Below are positions 8,598 to 55,310 of a DNA stretch of 64,000 bases, piece after piece; within the stretch, counting starts at the first letter, position 1; the number at the start of each line of letters is the position of its first letter. The position numbers and the translations under genes are program-made. The stretch lies in the NCBI GenBank assembly GCA_947368535.1, contig CANBHY010000007.1:45580-109579 (forward strand), written 5' to 3'. This DNA comes from an uncultured Clostridium sp. (GTDB lineage Bacteria > Bacillota > Clostridia > TANB77 > CAG-508). The notes under the pieces are model-generated. The model did not search any database. It saw only the letters and a list, made by a program, of their open reading frames with translations, and was not told the DNA's origin.

Positions 8598-11500
8598 TTA
8601 TTTTCTCATTTTATAGAAACTATATACTGCTATTACTAATAATGCTAATATTGATATTGTTAAGAAAATTCTTCTGAATGCTACACTTATATCTTCATAA
8701 CCTGTATAAGGTAAATCACTATTAGATGTAGTAGTCTTTGTTTGAGTTTCTGTTGTTTTTTCTTCACCTTTAACAATATTTGAATTAGTTCCTGTTGTTT
8801 TATTTCCACTATTATTTGAATTATTATCTTGACTTGGTTGTGTACTTGTATTTGGTTTATTATCTGGAGTTGATGTTGGTTTATCGCTTGGACTTAATGT
8901 TGGTTTATCGCTTGGACTTGGTGTTGGGTTATCGCTTGGACTTGGTGTTGGGTTATCGCTTGGACTTGGTGTTGGATTATCACTTGGACTTGGTGTTGGG
9001 TTATCGCTTGGACTTGGTGTTGGGTTATCGCTTGGACTTGGTGTTGGGTTATCGCTTGGACTTGGTGTTGGGTTATCACTTGGTTCAGGTTCTTTTTCAA
9101 TAATCCAATCAACTTTAGCTACAACTCTACCTTCATTTCCTGCTTCATCTCTAAATGTAAACTCAAACTCTCCATTTTCAGTAAAAATATATGTATCTTT
9201 TCCATCATTATTTGTTATTATAATTTCTTCATTAGCTTCTACAGTTGCTACTACATTTTCAGTAGTTTCTTCTGTTATATCATATGATACTCTAGCTATT
9301 GGAGCTTCTTTATCTATCCAATCTACTTTTACTGTTACTTCTCCATATTTTCCAGCTTTAGTAACATATTCAAATGTAAACTCTCCATTTTCGGTAAATG
9401 TGTATTCATCTTCTCCATCGTTATTTGTTATTGTAATTTCTTTACTGCTTTCTATTTTAGCTGTTACATCTTGATTTGTTATATTTTCTATATTATATAT
9501 AACTGTTATTTCTGGTAATTCTTTATCTATCCAATCTACTTTTGCTATTGCTTTACCTTCATTTCCTGCTTTGTCTATAAAAGTAAACTCAAATTCTCCA
9601 TTTTCTGTAAATATATACGTATTTTTTCCATTATTATTTGTTACTGTAATTTCTTCATTAGCTTCTAATGTAGCTACTACATCATTTCCTGTAATTTCAG
9701 TTATATCATAGTTTACTTTTCCAATTGGAGCTTCTCTATCTATCCAATCTACTTTTGCTGTTACTCTTCCTTCATTTCCTAATTTATCTGTATATATAAA
9801 TTCGAATTCTCCATTTTTAGTAAATGTATATGTGTTTTCTCCATCATTATTTATTATTGTAATTTCTTCATCACATTCTATTGTTGCTACTACATCCTGA
9901 ATAGTATCTTCTGTTATATCATAAGATATTGTTGCTTCTGGAGCTTCTTTATCTATCCAATCTACTACAGCTATTGTTTTAGCTTCATTTCCAGCTTCAT
10001 CTCTGAAAACAAATTCAAATTGTCCATTTTCAGTAAATGTATATGTGTCTTTTCCGTCATTATTCAAAACTATAACATCTTCGCTAGTCATTAAAGTAGC
10101 TGTTACATTTTGATTTGTCATTTCTGTAATATCATATTGTACTGAACCAATTGGTGCAACTTTATCAATCCAATTAACTACAGCCTTAATCGTTCCTTTA
10201 GTTCCTTTATTGTCAACAAATTCAAATGTAAATTCTCCATTTTCAGTAAATGTATATGTGTCTTTTCCATCATTATTTGTTATTGTAATTTCAGTACTTG
10301 GATTTACTACTGTTGCTACTACATCTTGATTTGTCATTTCTGTAGTACTATATTCTATTTCAGCAGTTGGCACTACTATTTCTTCTCTTTTAGTTATATC
10401 TTCATATAAATTTACCATAGCTACAGATGCAAATATACCATAAGTTTCTACTTCTAATTTTACATATTGACCATAGATACTTTCGTTAAATGTAATCTTT
10501 CTTAATTCATTATCTTGTGGACATTCTTCAATTCTTCCAGCTTCAATCCAATTTTCACCATCTTCACTTATATATACTATTGCATTTTTAATAAAGTCTG
10601 GATCATTTTCTTTATATTTTGTTTGAACAAATTCTAATGCTGACATATATCTTGGTTCATCTAATTTTATATTTATAAATGGATTACCTTCTTGTTCTAA
10701 AACTGAATATCTAAAGTCTGTATGCCATAATGTATTAATATTTCCGTCAATTGCATTTAGTGCATAAAATGGTCTTGCACTATCTGCGGATTCAGTTGAA
10801 TAACTCTCAATTGATAAATGTTTTATTGGTACATACTTTTGAGTTTCTGTGTCAGTATCTTGAGTGAATTGATATTCTATAATATCACTTGCTGTATATA
10901 AACCTTTGGCTTTTGCTCTAACTAATAATTTTCTGTCTCCTACTACCACTGGTTCTTCCTCACTATAATCTGTCCAATTATTATCATTTTCTAATTTCCA
11001 TTCAAGAATATCTTTATTATCTAATCCAATTAATCTATTTTCTAAATCATTTAAATATGCATTAATTGTAGGCACTGTTCCAGTTTTTATATTTATTGTA
11101 TATACTTCATTTTCATTAAATCTTATTTTTATCTTATTTTCTTCACTAATTTGATTTAGTTCTTCTTCTGATAATTGATTCTCTGATAAATTTCCTGCTT
11201 TCCATGTGTTTCCACCATCTATACTATATTCCCAATTTGAATTTTTATATTCATCCGCTAAAATTATCTTTCCACCATTAGTTCCATCAAATGAGAAATC
11301 AGCAACTATTTTTATCGTTGTATCTTCATAGAAGTTAAACATTCTAGCAGCTATAAAGTTTCCTCCACCGCCTGAAGAAGTTCTTGCTCCTACTATTTTA
11401 ATGTATTGAACTTGAACAGGTTCTTCAAAATCAATAGTTTTAGTTGTATCATTATTTGCCCATGTTACATTTTTTATTTCAGTAAAGTTTTCTCCATCCA

Positions 11501-14414
11501 TACTTCCTAAAATTTGAGCTTGTAATATTTTACCATTTCCACCTGCAGCTGGGAAATAATCCATAGCAGATAATATAACTGGTTTATCTAATTTAATAGT
11601 AATGTACTTTTGAGTATCACTTCCATTCCATGCTGAGTGCCATCTAGTATAATAATTTCCATCAATAGCAAATGATGCATTTCCTTGATTTGAAGTTGCT
11701 TCTGAAGAAACATTTTCTATTGATAAATGAGCTATTTTTATATATTTTCTCTTAGGATTTATTTCATCTTGAGTAAATTCTAAAGTTGTAACATCACTTG
11801 CTAATCCTGTTCCTGAAGGAGCCACTCTTACTTGTATAGTTTTATCTCCTGTTAAATCTGGTTCCTCTGTTGCATATGATGTCCATGGATCATTTTCATT
11901 AAAACGCCATTCCATTATATTTGTTGTACCCATTACTTTATTTTCTAAATCATTGTTATATAATGTTGGAGCATTTGTTTCTGTAATATCTATTTTATAT
12001 AAATTCTCTTCATTGTAATTTACACCAACAATATGAATATAAATATCATCTTCTGCATTAATACTCTTTATTTCTTCCTCAGTTAGTTGCCATTTATGTT
12101 CTTCTTCTGCTGAAAATGCTACTTCATGCCATGTTTGTTTTCCATCTAAACTATAATCCCAACGAACACCATTTCCATCAAAACGACTTGATAATACAAT
12201 TTTATCTGCATCTTCACCATCAAATGAGAATGTAGCTATTGTTTTATCTAATTTTCCTAATAAGAAATTAGCTTCTGTTCTTGTTAAAGATGGCTGATAA
12301 ACATAATAATTATCTGCTGTATTGTTAGGTACTTTTGTTCCTTCTGTTAATATTCTTGTTTGTAATAATGTAAATCTATAAGAATTTTCTACACTTGTTA
12401 ATTTAGGTTTTATTAAATTTGTTAATTGTTGCATTGGTAATGGGAAATATTTTAAGTTTTCTCCAACTTCTCTAGCCAACTCAAAATATTCATCTTCTGT
12501 TTTAGTTGTACTTGTATTATATACATTAATTAATCCTAACCATGCATCAAGATTTATTGGTTGTATTTCTAATGCTCTTCTATAAATCTCTTCTTGTTTT
12601 ACTAAATCACCTTCATATGATTTAGCAAGCATTACAGTTTCTTCACATTTTTCAAAATTTTCATAATCGTTTAATGCTTCTTGAGCTAATGCCATATATA
12701 CAACTTGATAAGATCCTCTAGCATAATTAGTATTAGCATTACCCCAACCTAATAATAATCTTTCACCTTTTTCAGATAAAGTCCATCCGCTTACATCATT
12801 ATCTAGATTCCAATATCCATTTCCATTGTTATCTTGACCATAATATATAATAGCTGCGTGTCCTGGTTGCCCTATAACTGCTGCAGGTATACCATGAGAT
12901 GTACGAATATTTGAACCCGTTTTTGAAATACCACCACAAACAGCTCCAGTTCCAAATTCATTTCTAAAGTTCATCCAAACTTTATAAATTTTTTTATTCT
13001 CTGAGCTATAAGTTACTCCATATTTAGAAAATATTCCATTGAATTTTTTATCCCAATAATCTTTTCTATCTGGATCATGGAATACTGGATTGCCATAATT
13101 AGGATACACATATGCCATATAAGGGTGTGGTGTTAAATATGTCCATGCCTTGTTTGGTTGTGCATCAATAAAAGATTGTGTATATTCATTTAACCATAAT
13201 ATTTCTTCATCATCTATAATGTTGTTTAAAACAAAACGCATTTCTTCTACATTATAAGATTCAAACCATTTTGTAATATCTATACTATCAGTAACTACAA
13301 AGTTTCCTTCATCATACATTTTCTTGAAAATTGCATAACGTGTAACTGCATCTGATTGATTTAATGGTTCACTTGGTTGCATCCATAAAGCTACACGAGC
13401 TGAATGTGTAAGTGAAAGTGTAATTGCCATTTTCTTATATAGGTCACCCTTTACTGTTCCATATTTTGATACTTCTTTTACTTCAAAATCATTTTGATAT
13501 TTAGTATATAATTTTGATAATACATTTAAAGAACTATAGTAACTACCACCTTCTGGCTTTCCACCAAGAATATAAAGCTTCAATGTATCTAAATCATTCA
13601 TCAACCATGAAAGTGTTGCTTGATTTTCTTCACTTTCACTACAAAAACGTTTTAAAGCATATTGACCAGCATTTGATACAAGTTCTCTTTGTAATAATAC
13701 TAGTTCATACTCTTTATTTGATAAATCTGCATTCGCAAATTCAGTTTTAATTCTTTTATCTAAGTCCTCAACGCTGTTAACTAATCCTTCACCTGGTTCT
13801 TTATATGTTTCTTTAATTAATTTAGCATCTGCATATACTGAATGGTCATTACCATTGCTTCCATTAGCATCTGCATATAATTTTAAAAATTTTGCATCTC
13901 TTATATCTATTTTAACAAATGTTGCATTTTGTCCAGGTTTAGATACTTCTGGATTTTCATCAGTTTTTAAGTTCCAATTTTTTCCGTCTTCTGAAGTATA
14001 AATATAAAATTTAACTCCATTACTACTAGATGCTGCTGTTGTATTTAATCCTATATATGCTGTAAAATAATCATATCCTAAGTAATCTGTTAAATCATAT
14101 ACTACTGTTGAAGTAGCATGTGCCCATATTCCTTTTTTAAATGAATAATTAGCACCTTCGACTTTAACTGATATTAATGCACCATCAGATGTCTTATCTA
14201 AACAAATTGTTTTCCATCCTGCAGCTGATTGATTTGCCACATATGGAATATCTGATAAATAACAAAATTCATTGTTATTAGAATCTTCTGTACTAGCTAA
14301 AACTGTAAAAGGACTAGTTTCATTTATTAGTAAAACTAGTGTTAATATAATAATGCAAAAACTAATTTTAAATAAGTATTTAAATCTACTTTTTTCATTT
14401 TCTATATTATTCAT
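8598..14414 (-). CDS. Giant (1938-aa) LPxTG cell-wall-anchored surface protein with NPCBM-like and F5/8 type C (discoidin) carbohydrate-binding domains; putative glycan-active adhesin/enzyme
   Basis: N-terminal signal/TM segment. An NPCBM-like segment follows it (CYLSDIPYV…GWKT…KKGIWAHATS). Discoidin motifs (AIDGN..T.WH) occur twice. There are seven tandem ~84-aa modules (DWIDKEAP…YDITE…TNNDGKDTYTFTENGEFEF…). A PSPSDNPT x~10 linker follows the modules. The C-terminal sorting signal is LPYTG plus a hydrophobic stretch and KMRK. Confidence 0.8.
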   Translation of the reverse strand: MNNIENEKSRFKYLFKISFCIIILTLVLLINETSPFTVLASTEDSNNNEFCYLSDIPYVANQSAAGWKTICLDKTSDGALISVKVEGANYSFKKGIWAHATSTVVYDLTDYLGYDYFTAYIGLNTTAASSSNGVKFYIYTSEDGKNWNLKTDENPEVSKPGQNATFVKIDIRDAKFLKLYADANGSNGNDHSVYADAKLIKETYKEPGEGLVNSVEDLDKRIKTEFANADLSNKEYELVLLQRELVSNAGQYALKRFCSESEENQATLSWLMNDLDTLKLYILGGKPEGGSYYSSLNVLSKLYTKYQNDFEVKEVSKYGTVKGDLYKKMAITLSLTHSARVALWMQPSEPLNQSDAVTRYAIFKKMYDEGNFVVTDSIDITKWFESYNVEEMRFVLNNIIDDEEILWLNEYTQSFIDAQPNKAWTYLTPHPYMAYVYPNYGNPVFHDPDRKDYWDKKFNGIFSKYGVTYSSENKKIYKVWMNFRNEFGTGAVCGGISKTGSNIRTSHGIPAAVIGQPGHAAIIYYGQDNNGNGYWNLDNDVSGWTLSEKGERLLLGWGNANTNYARGSYQVVYMALAQEALNDYENFEKCEETVMLAKSYEGDLVKQEEIYRRALEIQPINLDAWLGLINVYNTSTTKTEDEYFELAREVGENLKYFPLPMQQLTNLIKPKLTSVENSYRFTLLQTRILTEGTKVPNNTADNYYVYQPSLTRTEANFLLGKLDKTIATFSFDGEDADKIVLSSRFDGNGVRWDYSLDGKQTWHEVAFSAEEEHKWQLTEEEIKSINAEDDIYIHIVGVNYNEENLYKIDITETNAPTLYNNDLENKVMGTTNIMEWRFNENDPWTSYATEEPDLTGDKTIQVRVAPSGTGLASDVTTLEFTQDEINPKRKYIKIAHLSIENVSSEATSNQGNASFAIDGNYYTRWHSAWNGSDTQKYITIKLDKPVILSAMDYFPAAGGNGKILQAQILGSMDGENFTEIKNVTWANNDTTKTIDFEEPVQVQYIKIVGARTSSGGGGNFIAARMFNFYEDTTIKIVADFSFDGTNGGKIILADEYKNSNWEYSIDGGNTWKAGNLSENQLSEEELNQISEENKIKIRFNENEVYTINIKTGTVPTINAYLNDLENRLIGLDNKDILEWKLENDNNWTDYSEEEPVVVGDRKLLVRAKAKGLYTASDIIEYQFTQDTDTETQKYVPIKHLSIESYSTESADSARPFYALNAIDGNINTLWHTDFRYSVLEQEGNPFINIKLDEPRYMSALEFVQTKYKENDPDFIKNAIVYISEDGENWIEAGRIEECPQDNELRKITFNESIYGQYVKLEVETYGIFASVAMVNLYEDITKREEIVVPTAEIEYSTTEMTNQDVVATVVNPSTEITITNNDGKDTYTFTENGEFTFEFVDNKGTKGTIKAVVNWIDKVAPIGSVQYDITEMTNQNVTATLMTSEDVIVLNNDGKDTYTFTENGQFEFVFRDEAGNEAKTIAVVDWIDKEAPEATISYDITEDTIQDVVATIECDEEITIINNDGENTYTFTKNGEFEFIYTDKLGNEGRVTAKVDWIDREAPIGKVNYDITEITGNDVVATLEANEEITVTNNNGKNTYIFTENGEFEFTFIDKAGNEGKAIAKVDWIDKELPEITVIYNIENITNQDVTAKIESSKEITITNNDGEDEYTFTENGEFTFEYVTKAGKYGEVTVKVDWIDKEAPIARVSYDITEETTENVVATVEANEEIIITNNDGKDTYIFTENGEFEFTFRDEAGNEGRVVAKVDWIIEKEPEPSDNPTPSPSDNPTPSPSDNPTPSPSDNPTPSPSDNPTPSPSDNPTPSPSDNPTPSPSDKPTLSPSDKPTSTPDNKPNTSTQPSQDNNSNNSGNKTTGTNSNIVKGEEKTTETQTKTTTSNSDLPYTGYEDISVAFRRIFLTISILALLVIAVYSFYKMRK
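8857..9083. repeat. Perfect 24-bp tandem DNA repeat (~9 copies) encoding the PSPSDNPT linker
   Basis: ggacttggtgttgggttatcgctt is repeated head-to-tail with only 1-2 substitutions per copy. Confidence 0.9.
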
Positions 14415-18529: not shown

Positions 18530-18943
18530 TTATTCTCCTATTAAATCTAGAATCAAATTTTCCCAATCTTTTGTTGGTAAAATTCTTATATCAACATCTT
18601 CATCTGAATAATATTCATTAATAATACTATCAAATTTTTTATCTTGTAACTCTTTAGCATTTTTTGATGATAGCTTTATAGATTTATTGTTTATACCATT
18701 TTCAAAAACGATTTCTTTAGTTCTAAAGGAAATAGATATATTGCAAATTTCTTTTCCCACTAAGCTATTAAAATAACTCATAAATGTTGCCAGTTCTTCA
18801 TCTGAAGATTCTCCATAAAAAGCCATATGTACAGTTTTTCCTTTTTCTTCAAGTTTCTTCAAATTGCTTTTAAATATAATAATTTTATTAATATCCATAA
18901 ATTTTTTACTATCATATTCAAACATTAATATATATTTTCTCAT
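18530..18943 (-). CDS. Hypothetical protein (137 aa), translationally coupled between the XRE-HAD gene and the PEP-utilizing gene
   Basis: 4-nt overlap with the upstream gene and a 1-nt gap to the downstream gene. No recognisable motifs. Confidence 0.4.
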   Translation of the reverse strand: MRKYILMFEYDSKKFMDINKIIIFKSNLKKLEEKGKTVHMAFYGESSDEELATFMSYFNSLVGKEICNISISFRTKEIVFENGINNKSIKLSSKNAKELQDKKFDSIINEYYSDEDVDIRILPTKDWENLILDLIGE

Positions 18944-20019
18944 AATTCTATTCCTCCATCTTCATGAACTTTCATTCTAGAATTTAATTTTTCAATACAT
19001 TCCGCAATTCCATCAGAATTTTCCCAATTTCCAACAATTATATCTTTATCATAATTACCAAGTTCACCTATATTAGCAGGAGCAATAAATACTGATCTTA
19101 AATCTAATTTCTTCAATCTATCTTTATTTAATGTATACATTTTTAAATCTTCATCTTGAGAATCTCCACCAATTATTACAAAAGGAACATCATATTTTTC
19201 TTTTAACTTTTTAGTAAGCATAAATACTGATTCTGCTTTAGAATGTTTTTTAGGCTTTATATCAAACTCTTTTCCATAATCATCATAATAAGTAACAGTT
19301 TCAATATCTTCTGAATCAATAAGCCTATCTACTTCTTCACTTACTTTAGCTAAATCAGTTCTTGTTATATCTTCGAAACCAACATTATATAAACTAGTAA
19401 CTTCTGAACTTATTACTCCGCCGTATTGACTTACAATTTTTTCAATCTCACTTCTTTTTTCTAAGATACGTGTATCTAAAGTTAATAACTTGCCTGATTT
19501 GTCTTTTTTAATAATAAAACCACAATATTCTGCAACAGCTCCATCAAATAAATTAGGTAATCCATAATTTCCAGCTAATTCGTCAAGTAATTTGTATTTA
19601 CTTTTAGCTGATTCAAAAGCTGAACCTGTAATCATAGTTATTTGTACTTCACATTTTGACTTATTTTGCATTGCTATAACTGACTCAAAAAACTTTTTAA
19701 CATTTTCAGCTCCACCTTTTAATAATAAGTCCGTTGTACCAGAATAATCTAAAAATAATGGTATTACTCTTTTTCTAGTTGTTTCTTGATATTTTAGAAT
19801 ATCTCCTGGCTGACATTCTAAAACTCTACATATTTCTTCTAATGTGCTAAATCTCATCGCAGAGATATTTCCTGTTTTAATATTAGAAAGATTTACTGGT
19901 GAAATTCCAACTTCTTCAGCTAATTTTCCTAATGTATATCCCTTTTCTTTCATTATTTCTTCCAAATTTGTTATTATTGCCATAATATCTCTCCTTTTTC
20001 TACGGAAACAGTATATCAT
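18940..20019 (-). CDS. HTH_XRE DNA-binding domain fused to a Cof-type HAD phosphatase-like domain
   Basis: N-terminal helix-turn-helix LGKLAEEVGISPVNLSNIKTG. The C-terminus carries HAD motifs III and IV (KKHSKAESV; IIGGDSQDEDLKM). HAD motif I is degenerate (LFLDYSGTT, second Asp replaced by Ser). Confidence 0.55.
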   Translation of the reverse strand: MIYCFRRKRRDIMAIITNLEEIMKEKGYTLGKLAEEVGISPVNLSNIKTGNISAMRFSTLEEICRVLECQPGDILKYQETTRKRVIPLFLDYSGTTDLLLKGGAENVKKFFESVIAMQNKSKCEVQITMITGSAFESAKSKYKLLDELAGNYGLPNLFDGAVAEYCGFIIKKDKSGKLLTLDTRILEKRSEIEKIVSQYGGVISSEVTSLYNVGFEDITRTDLAKVSEEVDRLIDSEDIETVTYYDDYGKEFDIKPKKHSKAESVFMLTKKLKEKYDVPFVIIGGDSQDEDLKMYTLNKDRLKKLDLRSVFIAPANIGELGNYDKDIIVGNWENSDGIAECIEKLNSRMKVHEDGGIEL

Positions 20020-20079
20020 AACATTATGTAAAACGCAATAGTTTTATCGTTTATCATTAAATATTTTATTTTTATAGAT

Positions 20080-20117
20080 AAAAAATCAGCAGTCGCCCTT
20101 TCAGACAACTGCTGATT
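20080..20117 (-). terminator. Intrinsic terminator of the GC-rich ORFan
   Basis: Stem atcagcagt…actgctgat with a 14-nt loop, followed by a T-run on the minus strand. Confidence 0.7.
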
Positions 20118-20144
20118 ATTCTCCGAACTATATGACACCAACCT

Positions 20145-20468
20145 TCAATAGAGCCATGGTTTTCCGTCATTTTGTTCGCACTCCTTCCAGCCCTCTTCTT
20201 CCGGCTCTCCAGCGAAGTAACCTTCAGGCATTTTATATCCCTCAGGCAGCTCTTTCTTTTCAACCAGCTCAAAACCGCCATAAGAGATCTTTTCGTCTCC
20301 CTTTATGCTCTGCAGTCCACAAGACGGACACTTGCAAAAAGGAAGCACATTATGGTAGTAATATCCATCGCTATAGCCCTGCCCATACGAAATGGAACCA
20401 CAGTGCTCACACTTGAACAGCCCATAAAAATTTGATCTGCAACGCCGTTGTACCTTTTCAACTACCAT
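20145..20468 (-). CDS. Small zinc-ribbon protein (107 aa) inside a GC-rich islet
   Basis: CEHCGS…CKCPSCG (2x CxxC) plus an acidic C-terminus. RBS GGAGGAAAGAGG. A consensus sigma-A promoter lies upstream and a terminator downstream. The overlapping antisense ORFs (20072..20281, 20132..20416, 20172..20435) are GC artefacts. Confidence 0.5.
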   Translation of the reverse strand: MVVEKVQRRCRSNFYGLFKCEHCGSISYGQGYSDGYYYHNVLPFCKCPSCGLQSIKGDEKISYGGFELVEKKELPEGYKMPEGYFAGEPEEEGWKECEQNDGKPWLY

Positions 20469-20547
20469 ACCTCTTTCCTCCAGAAAATTTATTTCCTTTC
20501 GTATTCCACAAAGTACTGCGAAGGAATCATAAAGGATTGTCTTTTCT

Positions 20548-20576
20548 ATTATACCTCAACTTTTTACAATTTTCAA
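20548..20576 (-). promoter_or_regulatory. Consensus sigma-A promoter (TTGAAA-17-TATAAT) for the zinc-ribbon ORFan
   Basis: On the minus strand, ttgaaa attgtaaaaagttgagg tataat lies ~75 nt upstream of the ATG. Confidence 0.55.
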
Positions 20577-20588
20577 GTTATGTAAACT

Positions 20589-41267: not shown

Positions 41268-41400
41268 AGTTTTCGCACTACAAAGAAAGAAGACCTAATA
41301 ATCTCCTTAAATAACTTTGATAGCGGAATGCGAAAATAAATAAGCAACTTTCGTTTTGCCTCAATAACAACTTCCCGTCTATTGAGTCTTAACTATTTAT
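41268..41400 (-). ncRNA. Probable THF (tetrahydrofolate) riboswitch in the folT leader
   Basis: Minus-strand sequence AGAGUAGG…UAGUUAAGAC UCAAUAG…GGGAAG…UUAUUGAGGCAAAACGAAAG…CGCAUUCCGCUAUC matches the conserved THF riboswitch blocks AGAGUAGG / CGCGUUAAG / GGGA / ACGAA / GCAUCCGCU. The genomic context is the canonical folT one. Confidence 0.6.
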
Positions 41401-41466
41401 TTCCTACTCTATTTAAGTATTCTTATATTACTACATTTTTTTACATTTCTCAATAATATTTTAAAA

Positions 41467-54628: not shown

Positions 54629-54659
54629 ACTACTATTAAGAATTTTGGAGGTATTTCGA

Positions 54660-55310
54660 ATGAAACCACGTGCAGTAATAACACGCTTTGCACGGATTAT
54701 ATCAACTTCAAGGCTCCCTGATAAATATAAAGTATCAACTAGTTGCCTTAAAGATATTGATCCACAAAGCATAGGACCAGCAACTCGTAAATTTTACACT
54801 GATGTACTTTCGATAGGACTCAGCTGTGAACATGAATTAGGAAACCTGCTTATCTATCCTTTAAGATCACTAAACATATACATTTTGTCAATTAATGGTA
54901 AAAGCGAAATTATTAGCTCTAACCAAAGATTGTATAAAATGCTCTGCAAAAAAGGATTTATCACCGCATCAACAGACACACAAGCACTATTTCGGGAATA
55001 TGCCACTCTGGATTTCTATAAGATCTCTCAGCACATTTCTAATTCCCAAATTAAGCAACTTCATGTAGATGACTATTTTATTAGTGACAGCGATATTTTC
55101 TTTCTCTATACACACGATAAAATGAATCATTTCGCATTTATTCCCTGCCGGTTCGAAAATAAAACCGTAATTGAAGCATTTTTTAAAACCACTTCAATTA
55201 CTGGCAAATTGCTTGAAGAATTTGATCAGTATAAACTCAGACAGATTTCTTCAGCCTTCAACGAGCCATCAGAAATAATTCAGGAGATTGCTGAACGTCT
55301 CAATTTATAG
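54660..55310 (+). CDS. Hypothetical protein (216 aa) in a GC-enriched islet; no recognisable domain
   Basis: A GGAGG RBS 7 nt upstream of the ATG at 54660 makes the annotated start at 54645 unlikely. GC and codon usage differ from the neighbours. Its own terminator is at 55322-55350. Confidence 0.45.
   Translation: MKPRAVITRFARIISTSRLPDKYKVSTSCLKDIDPQSIGPATRKFYTDVLSIGLSCEHELGNLLIYPLRSLNIYILSINGKSEIISSNQRLYKMLCKKGFITASTDTQALFREYATLDFYKISQHISNSQIKQLHVDDYFISDSDIFFLYTHDKMNHFAFIPCRFENKTVIEAFFKTTSITGKLLEEFDQYKLRQISSAFNEPSEIIQEIAERLNL

Follow-up and report, generated by a model that had tools for sequence, protein, structure and literature searches.

A compositionally foreign one-gene cassette with a conserved structured leader and a phage-related putative zinc protein in a gut Clostridium

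The closest described relatives of the gene considered here are found in phages. They make up the family phrog_14808 (272 representative clusters at E ≤ 1e-3), whose members are uncharacterised, single-domain proteins of about 71 residues (about 60-80); a search of the literature on this family returned nothing. We found relatives at 16 IMG/VR loci and in 21 isolated phages, where all of them are annotated as hypothetical. The carriers include Streptococcus phages, Yersinia T4-like phages and others, as illustrated by CHPC676_0038 from a Streptococcus phage, IPP27_00017 from a pneumophage, g095 of the Yersinia phage phiR1-RT and gp108 of fHe-Yen9-01. The genes lie inside early operons, in replication and recombination modules where they follow cro-like genes, and their neighbours encode a replisome organiser, a DnaC-like loader, RusA, an SNF2 helicase, VRR-NUC, Gam-like and Sak4-like proteins, Erf and SSB. 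The homologues of Streptococcus and Yersinia T4-like phages are 52-72% identical, and such conservation across unrelated phages suggests a conserved target. That the core of this zinc protein is common to phages of Gram-positive and Gram-negative hosts suggests that the shared target is an important one.

Other known systems resemble parts of the locus. Phage morons are autonomous promoter/terminator units of atypical composition, placed between unrelated genes within a prophage. Small proteins of the zinc-ribbon or rubredoxin-like kind (the Pfam zinc ribbons, Elf1, the N-terminal domain of NrdR, Lar, Rpb9/TFIIS) have a CxxC...CxxC metal site, and the classical zinc ribbon is a two-hairpin fold. 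Among the 5' leaders of the Firmicutes there are the autoregulatory leaders of ribosomal-protein genes and the stabiliser hairpins, such as those of aprE and the cryIIIA STAB-SD.

The locus described here belongs to a window of 64,000 nt, the whole stretch of DNA analysed, from an uncultured Clostridium sp. As a whole it is probably best explained as a horizontally acquired one-gene cassette whose product would bind nucleic acid or the machines acting on it, under the control of its own leader; we hold this reading with somewhat better than even confidence. It would consist of a gene for a 107-aa protein, preceded by a sigma-A-type promoter and a structured leader and closed by an intrinsic terminator. 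One species of Clostridia from the mouse gut carries it as a fixed element, flanked by a Ham1 gene on one side and by the regulatory region of an HTH-p137-PPDK operon on the other (Table 1). An otherwise unexplained GC spike is in this way tied to a concrete, testable unit: a zinc protein and a covarying leader RNA.

Table 1. Features of the cassette and its flanks, in positions of the window
Feature	Position	Strand	Basis or remark
HTH (Cro/C1-type)-HAD-like regulator, native left flank	18940..20019	-	Pfam
Regulatory region of the HTH operon	20020..20075		abuts the cassette terminator
Intrinsic-terminator-like hairpin, AATCAGCAGTTGTC-TGAAAGG-GCGACTGCTGATT then TTTTTT	20078..20117	-	terminator scan
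ORF, 107 aa	20145..20468	-	open reading frame
Stop codon TGA	20145..20147	-	
Codons 81-107, acidic aromatic tail, predicted disordered	20148..20228	-	pLDDT, conserved motifs
Codons 1-80, globular 4-Cys zinc-binding domain (predicted)	20229..20468	-	phrog_14808 match, alignment, AlphaFold2
5' leader RNA	20469..20541	-	alignments, folds, covariance model
Shine-Dalgarno GGAGGAA	20481..20475	-	6 nt upstream of ATG
Leader helix P1, UCCUUU pairing with AAAGGA	20536..20531 with 20499..20494	-	alignments, folds
Leader helix P2, AUUCC pairing with GGAAU	20527..20523 with 20507..20503	-	alignments, folds
Leader loop, variable, 15 nt	20522..20508	-	
Promoter region	20548..20588	-	consensus scan; predicted
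-10 element TATAAT	20553..20548	-	consensus scan
-35 element TTGAAA	20576..20571	-	17-nt spacer to -10
Conserved upstream element AGTTTACATAA	20588..20578	-	abuts the Ham1 stop codon
Ham1-family NTP pyrophosphatase, native right flank, outside the cassette	20589..21188	-	Pfam PF01725, E 7e-16; GC3 0.205

The preliminary description of this DNA had proposed a self-contained expression cassette, in which a promoter, a GGAGG ribosome-binding site and a terminator enclose a protein with two CxxC pairs and an acidic tail. Our scans locate all of the predicted elements at the same places, and the translation agrees with the description of the protein. The TTGAAA-17-TATAAT site has 11 of 12 consensus matches and is the top site of the region, in a promoter scan that overall gave no enrichment over shuffled sequence (6 sites vs 8.4 expected). 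Its position is common to the homologue loci L001, L009 and L053, as is a TTTACA element. The terminator-like hairpin (20117..20084, minus strand), with 15 pairs and a T-run, is the sole one in the region (0.6 expected) and forms the left edge of the foreign segment; the homologues each have a hairpin and T-run of their own at the equivalent position. The recurrence of promoter position, leader, ORF and private terminator at unrelated sites in other genomes bears out the earlier proposal, and supports the islet as a self-contained monocistronic unit whose predicted promoter and terminator are presumably in use. It is extremely improbable that the segment is no protein gene at all, and instead a structured RNA, a pseudogene or an assembly artefact. 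The GC-rich patch is partly noncoding, as its terminator hairpin (20084..20117) is G+C-rich and its 5' leader (20466..20541, 37% GC) is also noncoding, but the frame, the length and the cysteines are kept, almost without indels, across homologues with protein identities of just 43-70%, and this protein-level conservation effectively refutes such a reading. The ORF body, moreover, has no Rfam match, and the junctions are identical across many independent assemblies.

The higher GC of the islet is real, with flanks at about 27% GC and not the 25% given in the preliminary description. In 200-nt windows, GC is 0.455-0.465 at 20100-20399 vs 0.20-0.30 on either side, and the highest-GC 324-nt window of the entire 64 kb starts at 20091 (0.463; mean 0.271, sd 0.034). 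The ORF itself has a GC of 0.457 and a GC3 of 0.463, in a window of 27.1% GC. When compared with the 62 other window ORFs of at least 100 aa (mean GC3 0.149, sd 0.051), its GC3 has a z of 9.8, and its synonymous-codon log-likelihood has a z of -7.6, so the deviation asked about earlier is significant at synonymous sites too. Recoding the protein with host codon usage gave a GC of only 0.332 ± 0.011, with a maximum of 0.377 in 10,000 draws; amino-acid composition thus explains about a third of the GC excess and foreign codon choice about two thirds.

These figures bear directly on the possibility that the gene is native and vertically inherited, its GC raised by amino-acid composition or by selection on codons or mRNA. 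GC1 and GC2 are indeed raised in every family member, every homologue is richer in GC than its host, and the gene is fixed within the species. However, amino-acid composition accounts only for a rise from 0.27 to 0.33 of the observed 0.46, and GC3 stands 9.8 sd from the window mean. The homologues L001, L009 and L115, from hosts of similar GC, have a GC3 of just 0.24-0.25, and therefore the protein needs no GC-rich codons. Positions elsewhere do show vertical descent in some lineages: the gene is convergent to rpsI in four (L049, L050, L052, L053) and close to rpoB in two (L009 and L115), while L001 lies near tyrS. Against this, the locus is a different one in each clade, and upstream of the HTH-p137-PPDK operon the gene is absent in ten related species. 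We consider native inheritance quite unlikely. Measured against the refuting conditions named with it, the horizontal acquisition proposed earlier stands, given the atypical synonymous sites and the absence upstream of that operon in those ten species, and the islet is supported as a horizontally acquired, compositionally foreign segment. It offers a clean example of single-gene transfer, still foreign in composition though fixed in a gut species.

The Ham1-gene-HTH arrangement is present in all same-species contigs read, which come from dozens of independent assemblies, and the suggested comparison with sister strains found the cassette in every one of them. The HTH-HAD regulator gene is the first of the conserved HTH-p137-PPDK operon, upstream of which GATAAACGA boxes are seen in relatives. 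The ten related species have other genes upstream of this operon and lack Ham1 there as well, so they provide no clean empty site. A protein pattern scan of 185,579 GTDB species-representative genomes gave no relative, and a neighbour-joining tree of the family is star-like and points to no donor. There is no mobility gene, integrase or convincing target-site duplication at the cassette. The sole candidate, the 9-nt flanking repeat TTATGTAAA at 20024 and 20578, was rejected as a target-site duplication, since other members of the family also conserve TTTACAT(AA) ahead of the promoter. Among the same-species loci, mismatches per 324 nt number 0-3 in the gene and 0-2 in the flanks, a comparison that is biased because the loci were selected by exact identity of the flank proteins.

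The earlier term "moron-like" does not fit in the strict sense. The cassette is like a phage moron in being a predicted autonomous promoter/terminator unit of atypical composition between unrelated genes, but morons lie in prophages, and no prophage, integrase, phage structural or defence genes surround the 107-aa gene by neighbour genes and Pfam; its wider neighbours are Ham1, the HTH-HAD regulator, PPDK, NUDIX, HAD and AP endonuclease genes. Also unlike morons, the homologues of some lineages occupy stable housekeeping neighbourhoods.

Nor is the protein an ORFan, as had been supposed. There are about 11 full-length homologue clusters in other low-GC Clostridia, and the N-terminal domain belongs with phrog_14808: residues 1-54 match positions 1-54 of the 71-position profile at E 6.2e-12, and all 8 full-length members match it, with a best value of 9.3e-18. 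The homologous part covers the N-terminal 55-80 residues or so, with four Cys and a DF..-CEHCG-...GY.D..YH.NV.P...C..CG signature. Both are small proteins that are uncharacterised, and they differ in size and setting: the window protein has an extra 27-aa tail, and its gene is chromosomal and monocistronic, with its own promoter, leader and terminator, whereas the phage genes lie within early operons. The phages were recovered with a 71-aa query of the phage type only; with the 107-aa protein as query, tblastn gave no match in isolated phages or plasmids.

The cysteine pairs are CEHC at 20-23 and CPSC at 47-50. In an alignment of 150 relatives C50 never varies and C20, C23 and C47 hardly do; the four are putative zinc ligands. 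The 8 full-length members share 33 invariant columns. AlphaFold2 with the 150 sequences gave an overall pLDDT of 86, with values above 90 across residues 1-80, after a first run with 8 sequences had been poor (pLDDT 61). The predicted strands (2-10, 13-19, 26-32 and 67-70) and helix (35-44) are arranged as a sheet of three strands followed by the helix and one further strand, unlike the two hairpins of the classical zinc ribbon. In a Foldseek search of solved structures in the PDB, the zinc domain had no fold match at E<1, the top matches being NrdR and non-significant. The 107-aa protein has no Pfam match at E ≤ 0.1 and nothing above the cut-off in NCBIfam; its relatives have Pfam matches that are all sub-threshold (ZPR1, HypA, Lar and others). 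A PDB sequence search, like Pfam, NCBIfam and PADLOC, returned only generic sub-threshold zinc-ribbon matches. The likeness to zinc-ribbon families consists of the metal site and these weak profile matches, with no model reaching its cut-off. The tail has a pLDDT of 53-64, and its PEGYF-GEP-EEEGWK...PWLY motifs are conserved in the family alignment; residues 57-107 contain 14 D+E vs 6 K+R. This acidic and aromatic tail is specific to the bacterial subfamily, the 71-aa phage proteins being without it. The protein is most likely a non-enzymatic binder. Its zinc domain, which is basic, would make contact with nucleic acid or with a machine that handles DNA or RNA, and the acidic tail would act as a docking or self-masking element. 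Since Foldseek gave no informative relative, nucleic-acid binding is suggested solely by charge, by generic zinc-ribbon similarity and by the phage neighbourhood.

The phage kinship invites a different view, in which the protein is an anti-defence or host-takeover factor: a domesticated phage early protein that modulates restriction, Abi or CRISPR, and that the bacterium retains either for a use of its own or as a leftover. We find this improbable, whichever of the two the gene is kept for. The family does lie after cro-like genes among recombination genes and is very conserved between unrelated phages, 23 of the 150 relatives have sub-threshold matches to the Lar restriction-alleviation model, and the acidic tail could mimic nucleic acid. 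On the other hand, there is no prophage or defence context at the locus, and the Lar matches amount to generic zinc-ribbon noise under the cut-off. The PADLOC models gave nothing significant either (no match for the window protein, and at best PDC-M14A at E 0.011 among the members), which leaves the anti-defence role raised in the preliminary description with no positive support. In some lineages, moreover, the gene is kept vertically at housekeeping loci, adjacent to rpsI or near rpoB, a pattern that speaks more for a role in the cell than for a weapon against defence.

The toxin suggested at the same time is less probable still. A toxin or small bactericidal peptide, alone or as half of a toxin-antitoxin pair, would agree with a small, compositionally foreign gene with strong expression signals, and an antisense RNA could act on the leader, as happens in type I systems. 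But the unit is monocistronic, with no partner or second conserved ORF, and Rfam gives no antitoxin RNA; the protein has no predicted transmembrane helix, and is predicted to be soluble and beta-rich. The gene is also fixed: every strain has it, with a consensus promoter in front. Finally, the phage homologue phiR1-RT g095 was non-toxic in an E. coli screen, with a relative CFU of 0.514 vs a toxicity cut-off of 0.4, and is not among the screen's four toxic hits (PMC6893735 supplement). A toxin is very unlikely on these grounds.

Returning to the reading of a binder under leader control, the leader hairpin is common to 8 of the 10 lineages, with covarying pairs, and is followed by an A-rich spacer that separates it from the Shine-Dalgarno sequence; L053 and L118 have differing leaders. 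The leader cells are paired in 92.3% vs 87.6% after shuffling (1 of 500), with slid controls at no more than 65%, and the covariation score is 0.338 vs 0.258 (0 of 500), figures that derive from 8 related, model-aligned sequences and from a P1 pyrimidine/purine helix that pairs easily. Three pairs carry compensatory CG<->UA changes, and only 0.56% of strand-swap permutations fold equally well. The leader folds no more stably than shuffled sequence (z about 0). In Rfam 15, nothing relevant was found at E ≤ 10 over 20469..20541 or at the homologue loci, the matches all being on terminators. This conserved, structured mRNA leader is new here and outside any Rfam family. It may be comparable to the autoregulatory and stabilising leaders of the Firmicutes in its hairpin, which begins some 5 nt into the predicted transcript, and in its SD-like purine tracts and anti-SD-like UUCC strand near the true SD; it differs from them in having no Rfam match and in preceding this gene family only.

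Synthesis of the protein is probably controlled post-transcriptionally by this hairpin, in which a GGAA decoy would sequester the anti-SD-like UUCC strand, only some 20 nt ahead of the true SD. Because the leader accompanies the gene at unrelated loci and in unrelated hosts, it should be recognised either by the protein itself (autoregulation) or by a universal factor such as the ribosome or an RNase (a 5' stabiliser). A bolder version sees an unrecognised class of mini-cassettes, in which a domesticated phage early protein, its zinc fold without a counterpart among solved structures, controls its own translation through the leader hairpin. By binding the UAA/GAC-type internal loop together with P2, the protein would expose the Shine-Dalgarno sequence or block it, and the intact promoter-leader-gene-terminator unit would hop between Clostridia genomes with no recombinase. 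We regard this as speculative and rather unlikely; if true, it would mean that the relatives, very conserved from Streptococcus siphophages to Yersinia T4-like phages, act on a target that is universal, be it nucleic acid or a polymerase. If the function is mundane, the cassette carries an ordinary small hypothetical gene.

The phage loci of the family do not have this leader: a pattern scan of IMG/VR gave 0 viral matches, and no phage locus had a strong match to the leader covariance model R1, whose strong matches are only at the 8 family loci. A general riboswitch was considered and rejected, with the viral scan empty and the metagenome matches, L094 apart, looking like chance. In the 64-kb window the pattern occurs once (0 expected). 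Among its 58 metagenome matches only L094 precedes a family gene, and this locus proved to be on the same 215-kb contig as L001.

As the preliminary description had it, the islet is GC-rich: in 200-nt windows it reaches 0.455-0.465, against 0.20-0.30 on both sides. With 324-nt windows the one highest GC value of the whole 64 kb, 0.463, lies here (mean 0.271, sd 0.034). Its codon use is atypical as well: the GC3 of the 107-aa ORF is 0.463, compared with 0.149 ± 0.051 in the other 62 ORFs that reach 100 aa (z = 9.8), and the codon log-likelihood gives a z of -7.6. Because re-encoding the protein with the window's codon usage yields a GC of just 0.332 ± 0.011 (maximum 0.377 in 10,000 draws), about one third of the GC excess comes from a protein rich in Gly, Pro, Glu and Cys, and about two thirds from codon choice foreign to the genome. 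The idea of a native gene under compositional selection conflicts with this simulation, and also with homologues whose GC3 is low in hosts that are just as AT-rich; we hold it to be quite improbable. The only other GC bump, at 8.8-9.1 kb (8800-9100; 0.38, positive GC skew), is a tandem 18-nt repeat; it encodes a proline-rich (PSDNPT)n linker close to the C-terminal end of a cell-surface protein of 1938 aa (ORF 8598..14414, - strand). The second highest GC3 in the window (0.297) belongs to an ORF at 54645-55310 (+) with a TTG start and no Pfam match, which sits between genes of opposite strand, where GC is raised over 1.5 kb, and may not be a real gene.

The promoter, the GGAGG ribosome-binding site, the ORF and the stem-loop terminator were all found where they had first been placed, the promoter and terminator being predictions. 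Promoter matches are not enriched overall (6 sites for 8.4 expected); the islet site is the best of them, and its position is kept in the homologues. With its own promoter, leader and terminator, flanked by a Ham1 gene (20589..21188, -) and an HTH-HAD gene (18940..20019, -), the islet is indeed a self-contained cassette between unrelated genes.

Features of the GC-rich cassette, in window positions
Feature	Position	Strand	Remark
Promoter match TTGAAA-17-TATAAT	20576..20548	-	predicted; 11/12 consensus positions
5' untranslated region	between promoter and ATG	-	~73 nt; GGAGGAA at its end
Leader stem P1	UCCUUU 20536..20531 × AAAGGA 20499..20494	-	
Leader stem P2	AUUCC 20527..20523 × GGAAU 20507..20503	-	
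Leader hairpin loop			15 nt in the window
ORF	ATG at 20468 to TGA at 20145	-	107 codons
Hairpin with T-run	20117..20078	-	predicted terminator; 15 pairs

No Pfam, NCBIfam or PADLOC model matches the 107-aa protein, which is nevertheless not the ORFan it was taken for: searches of 5.8 billion proteins returned about 11 full-length homologue clusters, 43-70% identical except for two same-species clusters at 98-99%, and residues 1-54 match phrog_14808, a phage protein family annotated as of unknown function (E 6e-12). All 8 full-length members match this family (best E 9e-18). The homologues keep the reading frame almost without indels, with 33 invariant columns among 8 members, including C20, C23, C45, C47 and C50. 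When 1.84 billion representative proteins were searched exhaustively with a profile, 272 relatives came up at E<=1e-3, nearly all of 58-80 aa and having just the N-terminal part in common; in a 150-sequence alignment M1, D13, C20, E21, C23, G31, Y32, D34, V41, P43, C47 and C50 are nearly invariant. The two CxxC pairs noticed earlier, C20/C23 and C47/C50, are predicted to form one CxxC...CxxC metal site; the likeness to a zinc ribbon is by motif only. The N-terminal half is basic (7 K+R for 3 D+E), and the C-terminal half, where an acidic tail had rightly been seen, is acidic and aromatic (14 D+E, 8 aromatic residues), with a repeated PE(G/S)Y motif followed by GEP.EEGWK and, at the end, P.L(W/Y). 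Since the phage C-terminus YRPL.TKYPEG aligns with GF.L..KKELPEGY of the bacterial form (MAFFT), the whole globular part, residues 1-80, is probably common to both, and probably only the tail, 81-107, is new in the bacterial form. In structural models the phage-related 4-Cys domain has a confident and apparently unsolved fold, and the acidic tail is predicted to be disordered. The window protein thus shares with phrog_14808 the HMM match and the cysteine signature, but differs from it in size, in having more than a single domain and in lacking a phage context. On one ENA contig (P0002) the same gene is called as a 164-aa protein with TGA codons read through as Trp, probably no real variant but the result of gene calling with genetic code 4 on an AT-rich contig. 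On the far side of Ham1, one gene away from the islet, lies another cysteine-rich protein of 242 aa (21271-21999, -), with many CxxC-like motifs in its C-terminal half and no significant Pfam match.

The phage form, of 71 aa, is encoded in 16 IMG/VR contigs and 21 isolated phages, with the consensus MKIKEI..Q.RRDF.AIFECEHCGH...GYDD..FH.NVIP.M.C.KCGK.A..YRPL.TKYPEGM.V. Its carriers include phages of Streptococcus thermophilus, S. pneumoniae, S. oralis, Acinetobacter, Klebsiella, Salmonella and Pseudomonas, together with the T4-like Yersinia phages phiR1-RT, TG1 and fHe-Yen9-01, and every copy is annotated as hypothetical. Copies from Streptococcus siphophages and T4-like Yersinia myophages are 52-72% identical to one 71-aa IMG/VR query; the unusual conservation across very different hosts can be followed in records OL774870, MH937463, KY065468, HE956709 and KY593455 (L112, L113, L119). 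The phage genes have the GC of their phage and sit in early replication/recombination modules: preceded by a replisome organiser and a DnaC-like loader, with a RusA-like resolvase gene downstream (L034), between an SNF2 helicase plus VRR-NUC nuclease on one side and Gam-like and Sak4-like proteins on the other (L041), directly after cro-like genes (CHPC676), or before Erf and SSB (IPP27).

A strongly conserved family of phage early genes would fit an anti-defence or host-takeover factor, one of the roles first suggested; however, the cassette has neither a defence or prophage context nor a PADLOC match, some lineages hold the gene stably in housekeeping neighbourhoods, and we consider such a role rather unlikely. 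A toxin, also suggested, is highly improbable, as the gene has no partner and is fixed behind a strong promoter, the protein is soluble, and the one homologue with experimental data, g095 of phiR1-RT, was non-toxic: in a toxicity screen of 94 hypothetical genes in E. coli it reached a relative CFU of 0.514, the cut-off being 0.4, which places it outside the four toxic genes (PMC6893735). The comparison with a phage moron stands insofar as the cassette is an autonomous, compositionally odd unit, and fails in that there is no prophage.

The source of the window is an uncultured mouse-gut species of the Clostridia. Proteins identical to those flanking the islet occur in hundreds of metagenome blocks and in the MAGs GCA_948590655.1, GCA_948493825.1 and GCA_948515225.1. 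Whether same-species contigs were retrieved via the 107-aa gene, Ham1 or the HTH protein, the order Ham1, 107-aa gene, HTH-HAD, p137, PPDK was the same in every contig read; it follows that the junctions are real and that the gene has become fixed in this species, with no "empty" sister strain among these contigs. Given such reproducible junctions and the conservation at the protein level, a non-coding element or an artefact is hardly credible. Ten related species (HTH protein 64-77% identical) keep the HTH-p137-PPDK operon with different genes upstream, for instance priA-def-fmt in L013 and an ATPase in L012, and their fetched loci contain no homologue of the 107-aa gene or of Ham1. In these relatives (L012-L020) two GATAAACGA boxes, ~21 nt apart and ~60-110 nt upstream of the HTH start, precede the TTGACA-17-TATAAT promoter of the operon, and the pair is probably an operator. 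The window has, at 20020-20075, just a compressed GATAAACGATAAAAC and a weaker TTGCGT-17-TATACT promoter. As this region begins right after the cassette terminator, the left junction falls inside the regulatory region of the operon, whose regulation the insertion may have altered. At the right edge, a conserved upstream element, AGTTTACATAA, adjoins the Ham1 stop codon. A 9-nt repeat, TTATGTAAA, brackets the islet (20024 and 20578); it was rejected as a target-site duplication because its right copy forms part of a conserved promoter-upstream element that other family members also have. The search for a donor, an integrase or a target-site duplication of the cassette found none. Two adjacent ORFs (21992-22702 and 22965-23879, both -; 260-nt gap) resemble halves of one ATPase, the 304-aa half with a DUF87/HerA/FtsK-like P-loop and the 236-aa half with weak TraG-D_C/AAA matches; the same pair lies downstream of PPDK in the related locus L015.

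No relative of the 107-aa protein turned up when 185,579 species-representative genomes were scanned for its pattern. Elsewhere its homologues occupy unrelated loci: near tyrS and a MIP channel gene (L001), convergent to the 3' end of rpsI (L049, L050, L052, L053), or between a two-component system and rpoB (L009, L115), a position which, being common to two related species, indicates vertical descent. All copies are somewhat more GC-rich than their hosts, with a GC3 of 0.24-0.25 in L001, L009 and L115 and of 0.44-0.51, like the window copy, in L049, L052 and L053; the family tree is star-like. We concluded that the window copy is a comparatively recent acquisition from a higher-GC lineage or element. 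The foreign codon choice, the unrelated loci elsewhere and the absence upstream of the HTH operon in ten related species, where Ham1 is absent too, uphold the horizontal acquisition first proposed, and a horizontally acquired autonomous cassette encoding a phage-related zinc protein is very probable. The terminators of the window copy (20084-20117) and of L118 (~20-65 nt after the ORF stop, ~1365-1410) are alike, with AATCAGCA at the start and TGCTGATTTT at the end; the two proteins are only 43% identical.

What the preliminary description did not contain is a conserved, undescribed leader RNA. Upstream regions of homologues from different genomes align well, with proteins only 60-70% identical, and share TTTTAAGTTCCT, a variable 12-20 nt, GGAATGAC, a purine tract, an A-rich spacer and AGGAGGAAC. 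Together these strings fold into a hairpin of two stems that begins ~5 nt from the predicted start of transcription, with the Shine-Dalgarno (SD) sequence ~12 nt 3' of it. P1 varies by lineage with complementarity kept (UCCUUU/AAAGGA, UCUCUU/AAGAGA, CUCCUU/AAGGGG, UUCUU/AAGAA, CCUUUU/AAAAGG), and three pairs show CG<->UA double changes. When eight leaders were aligned to a covariance model, 92.3% of cells were paired against 87.6% in shuffled controls (1/500 shuffles as high), and the covariation score was 0.338 against 0.258 (0/500), in a sample of just eight related sequences, with the alignment fitted to the model and with P1 a pyrimidine/purine helix that pairs easily. Pairing falls to <=65% when the partner strand is slid, and only 0.56% of permutations fold as well when 5' and 3' strands are swapped between sequences; in fold energy the leaders do not surpass shuffled sequence. 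That the loop varies in length speaks for an RNA hairpin and against a DNA operator. Two more distant members differ: L053 lacks the motif, and L118 has a GCGGAGGA/UCCUCCGC hairpin just before the SD, again a case in which an SD-like decoy holds an anti-SD strand.

As to function, the 107-aa protein may be a small non-enzymatic binder, its basic zinc domain contacting nucleic acid or a DNA/RNA-handling machine, as its charge, the generic zinc-ribbon resemblance and the phage replication/recombination neighbourhood suggest. The acidic tail could be a docking or self-masking element, as in SSB-type proteins with their acidic C-termini. Translation or mRNA stability is probably what the leader tunes. 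It accompanies the gene to other hosts and loci, and for this reason its partner would be the encoded protein (autogenous control) or else something universal, for example the ribosome or RNase J/Y, with the leader as a 5' stabiliser hairpin. This specific picture of binding and autoregulation is tentative, while the account as a whole is, somewhat probably, the best explanation. Horizontal transfer of small genes from phage-derived hypothetical families is known ground, and a foreign small zinc protein alone would not astonish a specialist; the lineage-specific tail and the leader are new, and the very conserved uncharacterised phage family and the compact covarying leader are concrete, cheap experimental targets.

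The strict leader pattern is present in all family loci and has a single match in the window, where 0 are expected. It has no match in IMG/VR, no Rfam family matches the leader, and the covariance model found no second copy in the window and none in the phage loci. Of 58 metagenome matches to the pattern a single one stands before a family gene, on the contig that also carries L001; the others look like chance. Five of them, on unrelated marine metagenome contigs (L057, L076, L081, L095, L100), have one conserved sequence in common, with one and the same short ORF (MGMHCRNKIGNDSIK...) after it; this recurrent element hit the pattern by chance. The only Rfam match above threshold in the window is a THF (tetrahydrofolate) riboswitch, RF01831, at 41319-41413 (-), with 57.4 bits for a gathering score of 36.
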